Source of the DNA: an uncultured Actinomycetota bacterium
GTDB lineage: Bacteria > Actinomycetota > Actinomycetes > Mycobacteriales > QHCD01
Assembly (NCBI GenBank): GCA_963775655.1
Contig: CAVZJT010000012.1
Coordinates: forward strand, 41,314 to 105,313
DNA: 64,000 bases
Reading direction: 5' to 3'
Positions 6,401-47,860 of this stretch are shown in pieces; positions within the stretch are counted from its first letter, which is position 1; the number at the start of each line of letters is the position of its first letter. A program made the translations under genes and the position numbers. The notes below the pieces were generated by a model. That model worked only from the letters and a program-made list of their open reading frames with translations, did no database searches and was not told the origin of the DNA.

Positions 6401-7045
6401 GTGACCGAGCCCGACCAGCCGGCCGAGGCCGTCGGGGTCGGGCCGCATCCCCGGCCGTGGCCGGACGACCCCAGACTCGACCCGGACCTGCTCGAGAACG
6501 GCGACCGGCGCAACGTCGTCGACCGCTACCGTTACTGGCGGCTTTCCGCGATCGTGGACGACCTCGACACCAGGCGGCATGACTTCCACGTCGGTGTCGA
6601 GAACTGGGCGCACGACCTCAACATCGGCAGCGTCGTCCGGACGGCCAACGCCTTCCTGGCCCGCGAGGTGCACGTGATCGGGCGCCGGCGATGGAACCGC
6701 CGCGGCGCGATGGTGACCGATCGCTATCAGCACGTGCGGCATCACGCCGACATCGACGAGCTGGTCGGCTGGTGCCGCGCGCAAGACCTCCCGATCGTGG
6801 CGGTCGACAACCTGCCCGGCGCCGTACCGCTCGAGACGACGACCCTGCCGCGGCGCTGCCTGCTGCTCTTCGGGCAGGAGGGGCCGGGGCTGTCCGAGCC
6901 GGCCCGCGCGGCCGCCGATGTCGTCTGCTCGATCGCGCAGTTCGGCTCGACCCGCTCGATCAACGCCGGGGTCGCCGCCGGCATCGCGATGCACGCCTGG
7001 ATCCGCACCCACGCCCTCCCACCCCTGGACCCCCATTCCGCATGA
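6401..7045 (+). CDS. TrmH/SpoU-family RNA 2'-O-methyltransferase
   Basis: HDLNIGSVVRTANAF, LLFGQEGPGLS and IAQFGSTRSINAGVAAGIAMH SpoU motifs. The GTG at 6401 avoids overlap with pyrE. The last four codons and the stop lie inside repeat element A. Confidence 0.8.
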   Translation: MTEPDQPAEAVGVGPHPRPWPDDPRLDPDLLENGDRRNVVDRYRYWRLSAIVDDLDTRRHDFHVGVENWAHDLNIGSVVRTANAFLAREVHVIGRRRWNRRGAMVTDRYQHVRHHADIDELVGWCRAQDLPIVAVDNLPGAVPLETTTLPRRCLLLFGQEGPGLSEPARAAADVVCSIAQFGSTRSINAGVAAGIAMHAWIRTHALPPLDPHSA

Positions 7046-7186
7046 ACGTGACGTTGATGCGGCTAGAGCGCTTGAACGTGACGTTCAAGCGGAATCGGGG
7101 CGCGAAATCGGGCCACCCCCATTCCGCATGAACGTGACGTTGATGCGGCTAGAGCGCTTGAACGTGACGTTCAAGCGGAATGGGGG
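7031..7186. repeat. Family A palindromic element, two tandem copies (7031-7100 and 7116-7186)
   Basis: Unit CCCCATTCCGCATGAACGTGACGTTGATGCGGCTAGAGCGCTTGAACGTGACGTTCAAGCGGAATGGGG. It has outer inverted ends plus two internal palindromes around AACGT-G-ACGTT. Confidence 0.9.
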
Positions 7187-10969: not shown

Positions 10970-12303
10970 TCCGCCGGCACGCCCAGCTCGCCGTCCTCGA
11001 CGGCCGGGTGGCGGCCGACGTACTCATCGACATCGACGACGGCGAGATCACCGCGGTGACCCGTGACGCTCCCGCTCCGCCCGACGCCGAACGGCTCACC
11101 GGCCTCACCCTGCCGGGGTTCGCCAACACCCACTCGCACGCCTTCCACCGGGCACTGCGCGGCCGCACGCACGACGGCGCCAGCACGTTCTGGACCTGGC
11201 GCGAGAAGATGTACGCCGTCGCCGAGCGGCTCGACCCGGACAGCTACCTCGCCCTCGCCCGCGCCGTCTACGCCGAGATGGCGCTGGCCGGGATCTGCTG
11301 CGTGGGCGAGTTCCACTACCTGCACCACCGGCCGGACGGCACGCCGTACGACGACGCTAACGCGATGTCCGCGGCGCTGGTGCAGGCGGCCGCCGAGGCC
11401 GGCATCCGGATCACGCTGCTCGACACCTGCTACCTCACCGGCGGGATCGGCGAGCCGCTGACCGGAGTCCAGCGGGGTTTCGGGGACGGCGACGCCGACG
11501 GCTGGGTACGCCGGGTCGCGACCTTCCAGCCTCCCGGTCGCCACGCGAAGGTGGGCGCTGCGGTGCACTCCGTGCGTGCCGTGCCGGCCGACCAGATACC
11601 GCGCGTCTCCCGGTGGGCGGGCGAGCAGGGCTGGCCGCTGCACGTGCACCTGTCGGAACAGCGCGCCGAGAACGAGGCCTGCGACCACACCTACGGCAAG
11701 ACGCCCACCCGGCTGCTCGCCGATGCCGGGGCACTCGGGTCGCGCACCGTCGCTGTGCATGCCGTCCACCTGCGCCGCGACGACATCGAGCTGCTCGGCG
11801 ACAGCGGTACTGGGATCTGCCTGTGCCCCACGACCGAACGCGACCTCGCCGACGGGATCGCCCCGGCCCGTGCGCTGGCCGACGCCGGCTGCCCGCTGTC
11901 GGTGGGCAGCGACAGCCACGCCATGATCGATCCGTTGATCGAGGCACGCTCGATCGAGTTGGACGAGCGGCTGCGCTCGGAAGTCCGCGGCAATTTCACC
12001 TCCGCCGCGTTGCTCGATGCCGCCACGGCGGCCGGGCACGCTGCGCTCGGCTGGCCGGGGGCCGGCCGGATCGCGCCGGGCGCACCGGCCGACCTGGTGA
12101 CCGTCGACCTCGACGGCGTACGGCTCGCCGGGATCGGCACCGACGGCTCGGCCGCTCTCGACGGCGTGGTCTACGCGGGCATGGCGGCCGACGTACGACG
12201 CGTCATGGTCGGCGGCCGCGAGGTCGTCCGCGACGGGGTGCACCTGCTCGTCGACGACGTGCCCGGCGAGCTGCGCCGGGCGATCGGAACGGTGACCACG
12301 TGA
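10966..12303 (+). CDS. hutF: Formimidoylglutamate deiminase
   Basis: Amidohydrolase fold with [34 protein letters not shown]. Overlapping start/stop with both neighbours. Confidence 0.88.
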
Positions 12304-13478
12304 GCTCGTTACTCGTCACCGGCATCGGTGAGCTGGTCACCAACGACCCGGCGGTCGGCGCCGGCGCGCTCGGCATCCGACGCGACGTCGCACTCGCCAT
12401 CGACGACGGCCTCGTCGGGTGGATCGGCGCACCCGATCGGGCACCGGCCGCCGATACCCGCCTCGACGTCGCCGGCCGTGCCGTCATCCCTGGCTTCGTC
12501 GACTCACACGACCACCTGGTGTTCGCCGGCGAGCGGTCGGCGGAGTTCGCCGCGCGGATGGCCGGAACCCCTTACGCCGCAGGCGGAATCGCCAAGACCG
12601 TCGAGGCGACGAGGGCGGCGAGCGACGAGTCGCTGCGCGAAAACCTCCTCAGGCTGGCCACCGAGGCGCGGCGGCAGGGAACGACGACGATCGAGTGCAA
12701 GAGCGGATACGGCCTCACCGTGGAGGACGAGGCGCGTTCGCTGCGGATCGCCGGCGAGGCCACCACGGAGACGACGTTCCTCGGCGCCCACGTCGTCCCG
12801 CCGGAATACCGAGGGGACCCGGATGCCTACGTCGCCTTGGTGTGCGGACCGATGCTCGATGCATGTGCACCGTACGCCCGGTGGATCGACGTCTTCTGCG
12901 AGCAGGGCGCCTTCGACGCCGACGCGACACGCGCCGTGCTCGACGCCGGTGTCGCGCGCGGTCTGATACCCCGACTGCACGTCAATCAGCTGCATCCCGG
13001 GCCCGGCGTGCAGATCGCGGTCGAGTACGACGCCGCGTCGGCCGACCACTGCAGTCATCTCACCGACGCCGACATCGGTCTGCTGGCCGGCTCCAACACC
13101 GTCGCGACACTGCTACCCGCCGCCGAGTTCTGCACCCGCGCCATCTCGCCCGATGCCCGGCGGCTGCTCGACGTCGGCGCGCGGGTGGCGATCGCGACCG
13201 ACTGCAACCCGGGATCGTCCTTCACCACGAGCATGCCGTTCTGCATCGCCCTCGCCGTGCGGGAGATGGGGATGACACCGGCCGAGGCGCTCTACGCCGC
13301 GACCGCCGGTGGCGCGCAGGCACTGCGGCGCAACGACATCGGCCGCCTGGGCGCCGGGCTCCGGGCCGACCTGGCAGTCTTGGACGCGCCGTCCTACGTC
13401 CATCTCGCCTACCGGCCGGGTGTTCCGCTCGTGTCGACGGTCGTACAGGGTGGCGCGGTGGTGAAGGAGAGTCGATGA
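12300..13478 (+). CDS. hutI: Imidazolonepropionase
   Basis: [41 protein letters not shown] overlap with hutF. Confidence 0.92.
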
Positions 13479-15760: not shown

Positions 15761-15818
15761 CCATGATCGTGATCGGAAGAAGCCGCGACACGCCGACGGA
15801 ATCCGATCACGATCATGG
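15761..15818. repeat. Family C hairpin with the conserved CGGCGTGTCG loop core (inverted orientation)
   Basis: Perfect 17-bp arms CCATGATCGTGATCGGA / TCCGATCACGATCATGG around a 24-nt loop. The loop reverse complement contains CGGCGTGTCGCGG. Confidence 0.85.
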
Positions 15819-15908
15819 AATGGGGAGATGGAGGGGAGAGACGAACGAGAGGCGAGGGGAGCCAGAGGGCGGTGCGGTCCGGTGGGGGAGCTGTGCCACG
15901 CTGGGTCG

Positions 15909-17289
15909 ATGGGCGCTCGGGAGCGGCTGGTCGTCGTCGGCGGCGATGCGGGCGGTATGTCGGCGGCGTCGCAGGCCCGCCGCCTGCGCGGACCCGGCGA
16001 CCTCGAGATCGTCGCGGTCGAGCGGGGCAGCTACACGTCCTACTCCGCCTGCGGCATTCCCTACCTGATCGCCGGTGACGTGTCGCCGGTGGCCGCGCTC
16101 GTGGCCCGCACGCCGACGGAATTCCGCGAGAAGCAGGACATCGACGTGCTGATCCGCCACGAGGCGATCGACATCGACCTCGACCGGCGCGAGGTCGTCG
16201 TGCGCGATCTCGGTGACGGCTCCGACAGCTCGGCTCTCCTACGACCAGCTCGTCGTGGCCACCGGCGCCGTACCGACGCGTCCGGACCTGCCGGGGATCG
16301 ACCTCGACGGTGTCTTCGGCGTGCAGACCCTGGACGACGGAGCGGCTGTCCTTGCAGCGCTCGAATCCCGGCCACGCCGGGCCGTCGTGGTCGGCGCGGG
16401 CTACATCGGCCTGGAGATGGCCGAGGCGCTGGTACGCCGCGGCCTCGAGGTCACCGTGGTCGAAGGTGGGCCGGCACCGATGGCCACGCTCGATCCCGAC
16501 ATGGGTGCGCTGATCACCGCCGCCATGCGCGGCATCGGGATCGAGGTGCGGCTCGACGACCGGGTGCGCGGCATCGACGGCGACGCGCGGGTGGGCGCCG
16601 TCGTCACCGCGACGGCGACGTTGCCGGCCGACCTCGTGATCCTCGGCCTGGGCACCCGGCCCAACTCCGGGCTCGCCCGCGCCGCGGGAATCGCGTGCGG
16701 CCCGACCGGCGGCATCGTCACCGACACCCACATGCGCACGCCCGCACACCAGGGTGTCTGGGCCGTCGGCGACTGCGTGGAGAGCCACCATCTCGTCAGC
16801 CGGCGGCCCGTGCACGTCGCCCTGGGCACCCACGCCAACAAGCAGGGCAGGGTCGCCGGCATCAACATCGGCGGCGGTGACGCGACGTTTCCCGGCGTTC
16901 TGGGTACGGCGGTGACGAAGATCTGCGACCTCGAGATCGCCCGCACCGGACTGTCGAGCCGGGAGGCCGACGACGCCGGGCTGCCCGTCGTCAGCGCGAC
17001 GATCGAATCGACAACGCGGGCCGGCTATTTCCCCGGAGCCGAGCCGATCACCACCAAGGTGATCGCGGAGTCGGGCTCGGGCCGCCTGCTCGGGGCGCAG
17101 ATCGTCGGCCGCGACGGTGCCGCGAAGCGGATCGACGTCCTGGCCGCGGCGCTGTGGAACTCCATGACCGTCGACGAGATCATCGGCATGGACCTGTCCT
17201 ACGCGCCGCCGTTCGCGCCGGTCTGGGATCCGGTCCTGATCGCGGCGCGCAAGGCCGCCGGAGTCGTGGCCGACGCTGCTCGTCGTTAG
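15909..17289 (+). pseudogene. CoA-disulfide reductase / NADH-oxidase-type FAD oxidoreductase, frameshifted
   Basis: RLVVVGGDAGGMSAA..YTSYSACGIPY in ORF 15828-16880. Continuation ..YDQLVVATGA..VVVGAGYIGLEMAE..WAVGDC is in ORF 16213-17289. A +1 shift lies near 16225-16235. Confidence 0.8.
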
Positions 17290-17298
17290 AGTCGCGGC

Positions 17299-17814
17299 AT
17301 GGCCGACGAGGGTGTGCAGCCGATAGCCCGTCAGCGTCCGATCGAAGACGGCTCGGAGCGCGAGACGCTGGTCGGCATGCTCGACTTCCTGCGCGCCACG
17401 GCCGTCAACAAGGTGGCCGGCCTCACCGAGGAGGAGGCGCGCCGTACCTCCGCATCGCCGTCGACGTTGACGCCCCTCGGCGTCGTCAAGCACCTCGCCG
17501 GGACCGAACGCTTCTGGTTCAGCATCGACTTCGCCGGCGCCGACCTGCCGTGGCCGTGGCCGGAGGACGACCCGCACGGCAACTTTCCGCTCGATGACTC
17601 CGACACGGTGGCGTCGGTCGTCGCCGACTATCTCCACGAGTGCGAGCGCTCGCGGACGGCCATCGCCGACGCCGCTCTCGACGATCACGCGCGCGGCGAA
17701 GGAATGACCTTCGTCCTGCGCTACGCGTTGGCCCACATGGTCGAGGAGACCGCCCGGCACTGCGGGCATCTCGACCTGCTGCGCGAGCGGATCGACGGGA
17801 GCACCGGCCAGTAG
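17299..17814 (+). CDS. DinB-family (DUF664) protein
   Basis: LDFLRATAVNKVAGL.., VKHLAGTERFWF, HMVEETARHCGHLDLLRE. Confidence 0.8.
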   Translation: MADEGVQPIARQRPIEDGSERETLVGMLDFLRATAVNKVAGLTEEEARRTSASPSTLTPLGVVKHLAGTERFWFSIDFAGADLPWPWPEDDPHGNFPLDDSDTVASVVADYLHECERSRTAIADAALDDHARGEGMTFVLRYALAHMVEETARHCGHLDLLRERIDGSTGQ

Positions 17815-21166: not shown

Positions 21167-21220
21167 CCCTCTCGATCATTCGCGGCTGACCTGAGCCGGT
21201 CACCCGCCTCTGCCGACGTG

Positions 21221-21303
21221 AAACAAACGCACTAGTAGTGCGTTTTGGTCGCAGACACGCCGTAATGCGACCCTCAAAACGCACTCCTAGTGCATTTTGG
21301 TCG
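21221..21303. repeat. Family B hairpin doublet (inverted orientation)
   Basis: AAACAAACGCACTAGTAGTGCGTTTTGGTC, spacer GCAGACACGCCGTAATGCGACCC, then TCAAAACGCACTCCTAGTGCATTTTGGTCGA. The spacer reverse complement contains TACGGCGTGTC. Confidence 0.85.
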
Positions 21304-21527
21304 ATTGCATGCGACGGCACATTGAAGGCCGGTTGTGCTTTTGTCCGAATCACTGGCCGCGCGCATTCCCCCTATGTGGCGCGCGACGAATGAGGTCTGT
21401 GTGACAAACGAGTTTCCTGTGGATCCTTGTGAAAATTGGGAATTGCGCCTAGCGTCATTTCCCGGTCGCTTTGTGCGACCAGTCGCGGTGGCTGACGCCG
21501 AGTCCCGCCCCAGCCCCCGCGACGCCC

Positions 21528-21692
21528 AGCGACCCGGACCGCGCAGGGCGGGAGTGGGGGACCCAGACATCCCGGCCCGACCGGCGCGTGGCGCCCGGGC
21601 CGGACGCCGGACGGACCCGGCTCGGGGTGAAGCGGACCTGTGGCCGGGCGATTCTCCGTCCGAACCCGACAGCTCACTCCATAGGCGTGGGG
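21528..21692 (+). promoter_or_regulatory. Cyclic-di-AMP (ydaO/yuaA-type) riboswitch
   Basis: GGGAGUGGGGGACCCA (21550-21565), CGGGGUGAAGCGG (21623-21635) and CCGAACCCGACAGCUCACUCCAUAGGCG (21660-21687) match my recollection of the ydaO blocks. It ends 12-17 nt before the Rpf-like ATG. The 5' boundary is approximate. Confidence 0.7.
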
Positions 21693-21703
21693 AAGGGCAT
21701 TCC

Positions 21704-22342: not shown

Positions 22343-22357
22343 GGCCCTGCCCCCGTC

Positions 22358-22573
22358 GACCAAAACGCACTAGGAGTGCGTTTTGGGGGTCCGGCTACGG
22401 CGTGTCGCGGACCACAACGCACTACTAGTGCGTTTTGGTCACGTCACCCGGCGCCGCGTCCGCCGCGGTTGCCGCTGTCTCGCCCCCGCGTGGACAAAAC
22501 CCACTACTAGTGGGTTTTGGACGGGTCGTACGGCGTGTCGTGGTCCACAACCCACTAGTAGTGGGTTTTGTCC
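22358..22573. repeat. Two family B hairpin doublets (GCAC type 22358-22440, CCAC type 22492-22573)
   Basis: GACCAAAACGCACTAGGAGTGCGTTTTGG-..CTACGGCGTGTCGCGG-ACCACAACGCACTACTAGTGCGTTTTGGTC, and GGACAAAACCCACTACTAGTGGGTTTTGG-..GTACGGCGTGTCGTGG-TCCACAACCCACTAGTAGTGGGTTTTGTCC. They lie in a convergent intergenic gap. Confidence 0.9.
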
Positions 22574-22606
22574 ACCGGAGTGGCGACGGTCGGCGTACGA
22601 GTCGAG

Positions 22607-34892: not shown

Positions 34893-34955
34893 GCCGCCGT
34901 GCGGCGCGCCTGGCCTGGCTTGGCGTGGCTTGGCGTGGAGTGCATGGCGTGGCGC

Positions 34956-35160
34956 GGACAAAACCCACTACTAGTGGGTTTTGGGCACCCCGTACGGCGT
35001 GTCGTGGACCAAAACCCACTAGTAGTGGGTTTTGTCCAGCCGGTCGCCTGCCGTCGCGCCGCCCACCCCTCGACCCCTGACCAAAACGCACTAGGAGTGC
35101 GTTTTGGGGGGCTCGTACGGCGTGTCGTGGACCACAACGCACTAGGAGTGCGTTTTGGTC
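34956..35160. repeat. Two family B hairpin doublets (CCAC type 34956-35037, GCAC type 35079-35160)
   Basis: Same architecture as 22358-22573 but with the opposite order of the two subtypes. Both spacers read GTACGGCGTGTCGTGG. Confidence 0.9.
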
Positions 35161-35240
35161 GAGCGCCGAGCGCCGAGCGCCGAGCGCCGAGCGCCGAGCG
35201 CCGAGCGCCGAGCGCCGAGCGCCGAGCGCCGAGCGCCGAG
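35161..35240. repeat. Heptanucleotide microsatellite (GAGCGCC) x 11.4
   Basis: Eleven perfect tandem GAGCGCC units plus GAG, directly abutting the family B element and 95 nt upstream of purS. Confidence 0.95.
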
Positions 35241-39369: not shown

Positions 39370-39438
39370 CCCCCCATGATCAAGAGGGAATTCGTACGGC
39401 GTTTCGTACCGGAATCCCCTCTTGATCATGGGCGGGGG
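39370..39438. repeat. Family C long hairpin with GGCGTTTCG loop core
   Basis: CCATGATCAAGAGGGAATTCGTAC / GTACCGGAATCCCCTCTTGATCATGG arms (about 22 of 25 paired) around GGCGTTTC, flanked by C and G runs. About 100 nt upstream of purF. Confidence 0.85.
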
Positions 39439-46408: not shown

Positions 46409-47566
46409 GTGAGCGGGGCTGGCCTGCGGGTTGCGGTGGTGGGGCTGGGTTTCGGGCAGGACTTCGTCCCTATCTATCTCAGCCATCCCGAGGTCTCGTC
46501 CGTGGTGCTGGTCGAGCCGGACGCCGTACGCCGCCGCGAGATCGCGACCCGCTTCGGTATCGACGACGGTGTCGCCGACATCGACGATGTCCTCACCGAC
46601 CCGACGGTCGATGCCGTGCACATCCTTGCTCCGGTTCACCTGCACGCCGACCTCGTCGTCGCGACCTTGCAGGCGGGGAAGCACTGCGCGTGCGCCGTAC
46701 CGATGGCGACGACGATCGAGGACCTCGACCGCATCATCGCCGCGCAGGAGAGCAGCGGCAGGAACTACATGATGATGGAGACCATGGTGTTCGGCCGCGA
46801 ATACCTGACGGTCGAAGACGCCTATCGCCGGGGCGAATTCGGCGCACTGACGCTGTATCGAGGGTTCCACATCCAGAACCTCGACGGCTTCCCGTCGTAC
46901 TGGCAGGGCTATCCGCCGATGCACTACGTCACCCACGCGCTGTCGCCGATACTCGCGCTGCTCGAGACGGGTGTGCAGAGCGTTCAGTGCCGAGGCGCGG
47001 GCCGCCTGACGCCGGATCGCACCGCCGGCGGCTTCGACAACCCGTTCCCGACCGAGGTGGGCCTGTTCGCGCTGCGCGACAGCGATGTGCTCGCGGACGT
47101 GACGATGTCCTTCTTCCAGACCGCGCGGAGCTACCTCGAGGGGTTCGCCGTCTACGGCGAACGCCGCGGTGTGGAATGGCCGGTCGACAACGACGGAGAC
47201 CTGACGGTCTTCGACATGCACCCGCCGGCGACGGGCAGCCGCGGAAACGTCGTCGAGACCGCGGCGCTCACGCCTCGCGACTTCTCCGATGCGCTCCCGG
47301 CGGAGGTCGCCCCGTTCACCCGTGCCGCGGACGTGTTGCTGCCGGGGATGCCGGCGAAGGTACGCATGGAAGCCCACCACAGCGGGTCGCATCCGTTCCT
47401 CGTGCACGAGTTCATCAGCAGCATCGTCGAGCACCGCGCGCCGCGGATCGACGCCTATCGCGCGGCAACCTGGACCGCACCGGGAATCTGCGCCCACCAA
47501 TCCGCGCTCGCCGGTGGAGCCGAGATCGCCGTCCCCGCCTACACCGCCCATTCCGCTTCGACGTGA
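46409..47566 (+). CDS. Gfo/Idh/MocA-family oxidoreductase
   Basis: LRVAVVGLGFGQDF Rossmann start and a typical EKP-like middle region. The last codons (..AHSAST*) lie in a degenerate family A element. Confidence 0.8.
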   Translation: MSGAGLRVAVVGLGFGQDFVPIYLSHPEVSSVVLVEPDAVRRREIATRFGIDDGVADIDDVLTDPTVDAVHILAPVHLHADLVVATLQAGKHCACAVPMATTIEDLDRIIAAQESSGRNYMMMETMVFGREYLTVEDAYRRGEFGALTLYRGFHIQNLDGFPSYWQGYPPMHYVTHALSPILALLETGVQSVQCRGAGRLTPDRTAGGFDNPFPTEVGLFALRDSDVLADVTMSFFQTARSYLEGFAVYGERRGVEWPVDNDGDLTVFDMHPPATGSRGNVVETAALTPRDFSDALPAEVAPFTRAADVLLPGMPAKVRMEAHHSGSHPFLVHEFISSIVEHRAPRIDAYRAATWTAPGICAHQSALAGGAEIAVPAYTAHSAST

Positions 47567-47585
47567 CGTTCACGCAGAATGGGCG
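47545..47585. repeat. Degenerate single-hairpin copy of family A
   Basis: CGCCCATTCCGCTTCGACGTGACGTTCACGCAGAATGGGCG. It keeps the CCCATTC/GAATGGG ends and the ACGTGACGTT core. Confidence 0.75.
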
Positions 47586-47606: not shown

Positions 47607-47669
47607 TCGACATCGTGCGCTGTACTCGCATCCGGGGGTCAATTCTGCGAGTAGGACGCACGATGTCGA
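47607..47669. repeat. Long hairpin (24-nt arms, 21/24 paired, 15-nt loop)
   Basis: TCGACATCGTGCGCTGTACTCGCA ... TGCGAGTAGGACGCACGATGTCGA. Confidence 0.8.
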
Positions 47670-47772: not shown

Positions 47773-47825
47773 GGCATCAACGTGACGTTGATGCCGCTAG
47801 ATGGCTTGAACGTGACGTTCAAGCC
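47773..47825. repeat. Family A core pair (two perfect 11+1+11 palindromes)
   Basis: GGCATCAACGT-G-ACGTTGATGCC (47773-47795), GCTAGAT, then GGCTTGAACGT-G-ACGTTCAAGCC (47803-47825). Confidence 0.9.
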
Positions 47826-47860
47826 GATTGGCGGCGGGTCGGCGGCGGGGGGTCGGTGGG

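Follow-up and report, generated by a model that had tools for sequence, protein, structure and literature searches.

Palindromic elements and their gene neighbourhood

The window, meaning the whole 64,000-nucleotide stretch of DNA that was analysed, has a G+C content of 65-74%. Upstream of the elements described here lies a histidine ammonia-lyase-like open reading frame, recognised by eye from its translation and matched by Lyase_aromatic at the syntenic position in a related locus (L133). The first element is flanked by a VTT/DedA gene (minus strand) and a pyridine-nucleotide-disulphide oxidoreductase gene (Pyr_redox, plus strand), and the first copies of the second kind of element by fba and the gene of an Rpf-like transglycosylase; further along the window are DUF3151, purA/D/B/C/S/Q/L/F/M and other genes. 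The neighbours of all seven elements are housekeeping genes. By protein comparison, the closest non-identical relatives of Fba are encoded by metagenome-assembled genomes (MAGs) labelled "Mycobacteriales bacterium", followed by Pseudonocardiaceae at ~80%, which identifies the host as an uncultured actinobacterium.

Syntenic loci in relatives were found through members of the Fba cluster and through PurC homologues. Three close relatives were compared: R1 (GCA_036497565.1; loci L133 and L140), a set of JGI contigs encoding the identical Fba (loci L134-L138) and R2 (ENA ERZ25039539 contig_42200; loci L139 and L141). In fba the third-position divergence from the window amounts to 0.14 for R1 and 0.29 for R2. 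The elements recur at corresponding sites in these three metagenome genomes, though with some differences in presence and absence. Two reading frames of the window appear interrupted. The 3' part of fba has an apparent frameshift at ~20980, which puts the Fba C-terminus out of frame relative to L128 and L133, and the oxidoreductase gene is split into two overlapping frames at ~16150-16210, the L133 protein being intact at 459 aa. Both are probably indels of a long-read assembly, pseudogenes being possible.

The sequence-only reading of this DNA had proposed that seven hairpin elements share a conserved core, and inspection of the sequence found all seven in place (Table 1).

Table 1. Palindromic elements and adjoining features; positions are those of the window unless a locus is named
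Feature	Position	Strand	Type	Details
B1	15761-15818	minus	class B	arms 15761-15777 and 15802-15818; loop 15778-15801
Doublet	21224-21298	minus	class A, G type, slightly decayed	two palindromes flanking TTACGGCGTGTCTGCG, read on the minus strand
Doublet	22358-22440	plus	class A, G type	GACCAAAACGCACTAGGAGTGCGTTTTGG - GGGTCCGGCTACGGCGTGTCGCGGA - CCACAACGCACTACTAGTGCGTTTTGGTC; 3' of the transglycosylase stop
Doublet	22490-22575	plus	class A, C type	27-nt perfect long-range arms; spacer with GTACGGCGTGTCGTGG
Doublet	34956-35037	plus	class A, C type	29-nt perfect arms around GCACCCCGTACGGCGTGTCGTGGA; purC-purS gap
Doublet	35079-35160	plus	class A, G type	contains GTACGGCGTGTCGTGG; (CGAGCGC) x 11.6 tandem array directly 3'
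B2	39373-39432	plus	class B	arms CCCATGATCAAGAGGG / CCCTCTTGATCATGGG; 28-nt loop with GTACGGCGTTTCGTAC; core variant 39397-39406
Candidate riboswitch	21582-21702	plus	c-di-AMP (ydaO-type)	
Tandem array	35160-35240		perfect array	
15-nt x 3 repeat	34911-34954		looser repeat	
Second doublet family	7040-7098; 7126-7185; 47773-47830; L139 ~17360-17420			
Second doublet family	47558-47572		partial	
Hairpin	47607-47669			13-nt perfect arms; 37-nt, partly paired loop

Five of the elements form class A. Each consists of two palindromes of ~25 bp (AAAAC[G/C]CACT-nnn-AGTG[C/G]GTTTT) around a spacer of 24-32 nt that carries (C)GTACGGCGTGTCG(Y)GG, and since the two palindromes share one sequence the unit is also one long inverted repeat. 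The ten palindromes of the five doublets account for 20 half-site matches in the window, against 0.05 expected. The stems AAAACGCACTAG and AAAACCCACTAG belong to one family, their G and C subtypes differing at a single stem position that is changed on both arms; locus L141 carries an intermediate, AAAACGCACT...AGTGGGTTTT, in both of its palindromes, and each subtype is therefore one substitution away from an imperfect ancestor. The palindrome loops of C-type doublets (ACT/AGT) are in inverted orientation, and those of the 35079 and L141 doublets are identical and thus in direct orientation.

Class B is a single hairpin with arms of 16-19 bp, present twice in the window. The outer arms CCATGATC / GATCATGG are common to the class (B1 and B2 match over the outer 8-9 nt), the inner arms differ with full compensation, and the loop begins (T/C)CGTACGGCGT[G/T]TCG. 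In the class B alignment 96.6% of cells are paired, and four of 17 pairs are changed on both sides between the B subtypes. B1 has perfect 17-nt arms, CCATGATCGTGATCGGA / TCCGATCACGATCATGG, and a 24-nt loop, AGAAGCCGCGACACGCCGACGGAA, as first reported. The reverse complement of this loop does contain CGGCGTGTCGCGG, which recurs at 22398-22410, and the core CGGCGTGTCG lies on the minus strand at 15786-15795. The earlier claim of at least four unrelated stem types was too generous: there are two families with two subtypes each, although classes A and B are truly unrelated to one another.

B1 occupies the middle of a 211-bp divergent gap, ~63 nt from the VTT/DedA start and ~90 nt from the oxidoreductase start, in agreement with its original description as a divergent-gap hairpin. 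B2 begins 18 nt 3' of an MDMPI/SCP_3 stop codon, upstream of purF. The doublet after fba begins 35 nt 3' of the fba stop, upstream of the candidate c-di-AMP riboswitch and the Rpf-like gene. The doublets form two tandem pairs (22358 + 22490 and 34956 + 35079), the first of which (22358-22575) lies between convergent genes. The purC-purS gap measures ~450 bp in the window and 45 bp in relatives with ~83% Fba identity.

Several features adjoin the doublets. The candidate riboswitch is a full-length match of 34.4 bits (gathering score 38, E = 2.7e-4) upstream of the Rpf-like transglycosylase / PG_binding gene, in a region well conserved in L133; the pairing of such a riboswitch with such a gene is known in actinobacteria. 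The (CGAGCGC) array that abuts the 35079 doublet is perfect and is absent at the orthologous place in L140, and the looser 15-nt repeat stands just before the C-type doublet at 34956.

The core at the centre of the inverted repeats

The exact core CGGCGTGTCG occurs five times in the window against 1.78 expected, and all five copies lie at the centre of long inverted repeats. With one mismatch allowed there are 30 matches against 37 expected; because this count is at chance level, the 10-mer is enriched at palindrome centres only and not generally, so that, within the window, the suspicion that it might be equally frequent elsewhere was not borne out. Of the five hairpins in the window with arms of 13 nt or more and loops of 18 nt or more, four carry the core. 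All eight of eight class A copies have the spacer core T.CGGCGTGTC unchanged, and class B has it too. Aligning further copies did not dissolve the likeness either: an alignment of 15 copies, drawn from three genomes, shows no variation in CGGCGT[G/T]TC. The conserved centre within self-complementary flanks is real and significant, and it holds with more copies and in related genomes.

It could be argued that the resemblance between the centres of the two classes is a coincidence of GC-rich DNA, and the chance-level count of one-mismatch 10-mers fits that argument. With the motif defined from class A, however, the probability that the 24-nt B1 loop holds an exact copy and the 28-nt B2 loop a one-mismatch copy is ~4.2e-4 x 0.011, or ~5e-6, by arithmetic from the match rates. 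Moreover, the match extends to 13-16 nt, and CCGTACGGCGT[G/T]TCG is also found in four further class B copies and in the L139 orthologue of B1. The added copies effectively refute coincidence, which we regard as extremely improbable.

Compared with shuffled controls, every unit folds far more stably (z from -4.8 to -9.8); the predicted RNA folds reach -45.4 kcal/mol for B1 (z = -5.2), -54.9 kcal/mol for B2 (z = -7.8) and -67 kcal/mol for the 22490 doublet (z = -9.8). In ~1.1 Mb of sequence, 772 matches to the core with up to one mismatch were found, and 22 of these had arms scoring at least 10, 19 of which were in the window or in the three close relatives. A covariance model of class B recovered its seven training copies in a search of 627 kb and matched two C-type class A doublets at ~22 bits (E ~0.02); it found no additional class B copy in those 627 kb, the other non-training matches scoring below 20 bits.

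Scanning genome contigs for the longer core GTACGGCGTGTCGTGG gave at least 119 loci, nearly all of them chance matches in coding sequence. Among the 161 chance occurrences of the 16-mer listed from genomes and viral contigs, one sits in a long inverted repeat. This locus (L046), in a Frankiaceae MAG, has the core in the 27-nt loop of an inverted repeat with 23-nt arms, just 3' of a stop codon, and is a candidate third arm type; it was not counted as a member because its score against the class B model is only 13 bits. Viral contigs, used as a control, contained no class A palindromes, and none of their 42 core matches had inverted-repeat arms. BLAST of the doublet region and of the core against plasmids returned nothing or chance matches in coding sequence only, and a scan of JGI metagenome contigs for class A palindromes returned five low-GC chance matches only.

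The sequence-only reading had known of no described actinobacterial family with this architecture, and no match was found here. No Rfam family matched at its gathering score, and at E <= 5 only spurious microRNA-hairpin matches overlapped the elements. A literature search with the motif string retrieved primers only, and no comparable family of Actinobacteria was found described. The core was also compared with known actinobacterial motifs, namely WhiA GACAC, GlnR boxes, the DnaA box TTGTCCACA (at the ends of C-type units) and topoisomerase I sites; the matches were partial at best and unconserved among copies, and these candidates were rejected. A short open reading frame in the B elements (MI..G..RR[VF]A..) was likewise considered. 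It is open in seven of seven copies, which follows from homology, equal length and high GC, and its frame is not that of VTT or Pyr_redox; this reading was dropped.

Conservation, polymorphism and orientation

B1 has orthologues in R1 (L133 5653-5710) and R2 (L139 1536-1591), which occupy the corresponding position upstream of the VTT gene. Across the three genomes 33-34 of the 34 arm nucleotides are identical, compared with 79-88% of the loop and 51-70% of the 50-nt flanks. The arms show 0 and 1 changes in 34 nt where ~5 and ~10 would be expected from the fba rates. They are conserved well beyond the synonymous rate and are therefore constrained or homogenised. The loop of the R1 orthologue carries CGGCGTTTCG, the same variant as B2, and that of R2, CCGTACGGCGTGTCGCGG, is nearer to class A than the window loop.

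Such long-term conservation at one site with identical arms equally fits a locus-specific regulatory site, and the elements at large might be operators of a regulon, with the arms as half-sites of a transcription factor or nucleoid protein and/or the core as a duplex binding site, kept for regulation and not spread. The mid-gap position of B1, the contrast between its arms and its diverged flanks, and a second class B copy in a divergent gap (B4 of L141, between merR and purS) support this, and independence of orientation would suit a duplex site. Most copies, however, lie just 3' of stop codons, among them the copies at 22358-22575, which stand between convergent genes, and those in the gap of the pur operon. 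The two unrelated arm families would require two different regulators, presence and absence vary between near-identical strains without a change in gene content, and arm centres 40-55 bp apart would be atypical for one dimeric regulator. We consider a regulon unlikely as the general explanation.

The doublets vary in their occurrence. R1 and every one of the JGI contigs (L133-L138) have an orthologue of the doublet after fba (21224). That of the doublet after purC (35079) lies at 10908-10991 in L140, where it is of G type, and at 10916-10991 in L141, where it is of hybrid type. The orthologous site in L133, L134, L136 and L137 lacks the G doublet of 22358, and neither L140 nor L141 has the C doublet of 34956 in its purC-purS gap; among the genomes compared, both are found in the window only. 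At the site of the 22490 doublet L133, L134 and L136 have a lone palindrome, GTGGACAAAACCCACTACTAGTGGGTTTTGTCCA, and L137 has the same doublet as a gapless reverse complement (59/63), arm asymmetry included. Similarly, the B2 orthologue in L141 (16513-16570) keeps its arms but carries the loop in inverted form, matching the reverse complement at 20/28 positions and retaining CGGCGTTTCG. The central segment is thus inverted in two orthologous pairs, and in both the core is intact. At the equivalent sites of L120, L126 and L127 (~83% Fba identity) the elements were not found. The units are multi-copy, intergenic and located at fixed sites in relatives, with arms conserved far beyond neutral expectation, and they are occasionally gained, lost, collapsed to a lone palindrome or inverted at the centre.

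These inversions bear on whether the units act as RNA. As mRNA stem-loops or small RNAs they might expose an apical loop that pairs with a target or protein in processing, stability or attenuation. Their folding, the compensated stem changes and the location of most copies in transcribed 3' regions or operon gaps are as one would expect of such RNAs. Yet the core lies on the sense strand of the upstream gene in ~7 copies and on the antisense strand in ~4, and flipping the centre of a fixed transcript would replace its loop by the complementary sequence. Mismatches in the arms are of every sort (C.T, G.G, A.C) with no preference for G.U, the loop has no conserved internal structure, and Rfam offers no match. 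An RNA function is accordingly judged quite improbable. The sequence-only reading had allowed either a folded RNA or single-stranded DNA with a recognised loop, or a protein-bound core; its RNA option is weakened by the mixed strands and the inverted centres, and recognition at the DNA level, which either of the other two options would fit, is favoured. Preservation of the core across unrelated arms, species and inversions, with mixed orientation to genes, argues for the latter rather than for a fixed-strand RNA function.

Position relative to genes raises one more possibility. Eight of ten distinct sites lie 8-64 nt 3' of a stop codon, the other two being the divergent gaps of B1 and L141 B4. 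The units might therefore be factor-independent terminators, I-shaped or bidirectional, whose common centre is a relic of descent with no function of its own; the AAAA...TTTT frame of the class A palindromes is suggestive in this regard, and ordinary GC-rich hairpins stand at equivalent places in relatives (L120). A terminator scan, though, flagged only one of the ten class A palindromes (21281-21293), with counts not above those of shuffled sequences, and the combination of GC-rich stem, short loop and T-run that defines intrinsic terminators was otherwise not seen. Nor do terminators explain the two units in promoter gaps, the identical arms at different loci, or a core kept across unrelated arms and inversions. 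We give this explanation a low probability.

Signs of mobility were sought around the units. There was no unambiguous target-site duplication, the only candidate being a 7-bp GCCCCCG around an extra block of 137 bp at 22343-22489. No transposase, RAYT or other HUH gene was seen in the 64-kb window (open reading frame translations by eye, Pfam on ten flanking frames) or in the Pfam tables of ~75 kb of related loci. The notion that the arms are inverted duplications of local target DNA was rejected, the same arms being present at different loci.

R2 has two further class B copies. In L141 a 114-bp direct repeat (10990-11103 and 12311-12424, 86% identity) has a class B hairpin in each copy and brackets an insert of two genes (Ble-like and MerR) between purC and purS; it could be the footprint of integration or recombination at a B element. 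Two more rearrangements were noted in L139, namely an ABC-transporter block inserted next to B1 (L139 1536-3118 against window 15761-15910) and a five-gene sugar/glycosyltransferase block at the site of the post-fba doublet (L139 11041-16132 against window 21189-21335). In all, three breaks in synteny between relatives fall at sites of the elements.

A second family of palindromic doublets was also observed: GCATGAACGTGACGTTGATGC - GGCTAGA - GCGCTTGAACGTGACGTTCAAGCG, with seven half-unit matches against 0.1 expected. Its units are tandem and lie in gaps between convergent genes, and in L139 they occupy the site of the class A doublets of the window. The hairpin with 13-nt arms in Table 1 shares a gap with this family and lacks the core.

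Nature of the family and comparison with known repeats

On balance, we favour the view that the seven elements form a family of small palindromic DNA repeats that are dispersed, specific to the lineage and of the REP/BIME/REPIN kind; they would act at the DNA level and bear a tip motif that is putatively recognised by a protein. The host clade consists of uncultured actinobacteria labelled "Mycobacteriales bacterium" by NCBI; copy number in the clade is known from ~140 kb, and the term dispersed family rests on 7 + 8 copies.

Under this favoured reading each unit is a long inverted repeat, made of class B arms or of a pair of class A palindromes, that could extrude as a hairpin or cruciform and would then present an asymmetric tip of 20-30 nt with (C)CGTACGGCGT[G/T]TCG(Y)G. 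The inverted arms would be a substrate for rearrangement. Since each class A palindrome repeats its partner in direct as well as inverted sense, recombination or slippage between the two could remove one of them, with a singlet as the result, or could flip the spacer. This would most simply explain the solo, doublet and inverted alleles. The tip motif may be the recognition site of one trans-acting protein that reads it at the DNA level. Such a reader might be an enzyme that nicks or transposes and acts on the extruded loop, or else an architectural protein that binds DNA as IHF does at BIME-1; a single shared reader would explain why the same centre is kept on unrelated stems. A hairpin 8-64 nt 3' of a stop codon would likely have the secondary consequence of altering transcript 3' ends or transcript stability.

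A stronger version, which we put forward as a doubtful though conceivable one, is that a single protein of the clade recognises the tip motif of 10-16 nt on extruded hairpins irrespective of their stems, and so mobilises or maintains several unrelated families of palindromes. This would amount to a REPIN-like system with its specificity in the loop instead of the stem, and it may reach as far as the Frankiaceae, given the third arm type with the same core at L046.

Dispersed palindromic repeats and the enzymes that mobilise them are well described in proteobacteria. In the BIME-1 (RIP-RIB) elements of E. coli, two inverted REP palindromes surround a linker with an IHF site; the host proteins that bind the linker or the palindromes of REP/BIME repeats include IHF, gyrase and Pol I. 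BIMEs and REPINs are the nearest analogues of the present units. As with BIMEs, short, imperfect, repeated extragenic palindromes (in the window all ten class A palindromes and both class B hairpins are intergenic) are paired around a conserved linker, which in BIMEs is the protein site. They are likewise sited after genes and between convergent genes, at distances from stop codons typical of REP-type repeats, and clustered, with five doublets and two tandem pairs. Unlike BIMEs, they belong to another phylum and have an unrelated sequence, and the linker motif is found in a second, single-hairpin family as well.

Correia elements have a central protein-binding site; these and other MITEs resemble our units in small size, terminal inverted repeats and intergenic dispersal. 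Our units differ from them in that no clear target-site duplication and no parent insertion sequence was found, the units measure only 58-86 bp, and the arms differ between families while the centre is kept. At rolling-circle origins and HUH nuclease sites a variable stem bears a conserved nick motif in its loop. The present units follow the same logic of variable stems topped by a conserved loop, but they have many chromosomal copies beside housekeeping genes, neither a Rep nor a relaxase gene lies nearby, and they show no known nick motif. Integron attC sites are imperfect palindromes with conserved RYYYAAC / GTTRRRY ends that border cassettes beside intI, whereas the class B ends are CCATGATC / GATCATGG with no integrase nearby, and an insert bracketed by B copies was seen in a single case, that of L141.

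REPINs (PMC3337134, PMC3116915) share with class A, as far as its C-type doublets are concerned, an inverted palindrome doublet that folds into one long hairpin, and with class A at large subfamilies within a genome, singlets that resemble remnants of doublets, and vertical persistence at orthologous sites with occasional gain or loss. The spacer sets them apart. No two REPIN spacers are alike (PMC3337134). In REPINs the spacer is the least conserved part between conserved REPs, whereas here the spacer core is the most conserved. Some class A doublets are also direct rather than inverted in loop orientation, and excision was not observed. REPIN genomes have a RAYT (Y1 HUH) transposase gene flanked by REPs, and none was seen in the window and ~75 kb of related loci.

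If unrelated stems do keep one tip motif, this would point to a reader protein with loop specificity, and the motif would provide a defined oligonucleotide for fishing out that putative protein. How palindromes of this sort rearrange is shown by the solo, doublet and inverted alleles found at one site in near-identical strains. The elements mark the lineage, and since three synteny breakpoints coincide with their sites they may help to shape gene order in the clade. They also complicate gene calling, because start codons are called inside their arms: class B arms can mislead such calls, as at L139 777-1538, where the VTT start was placed at an ATG in the hairpin arm (GATCATGG), giving a protein of 253 aa compared with 226 aa in L133.
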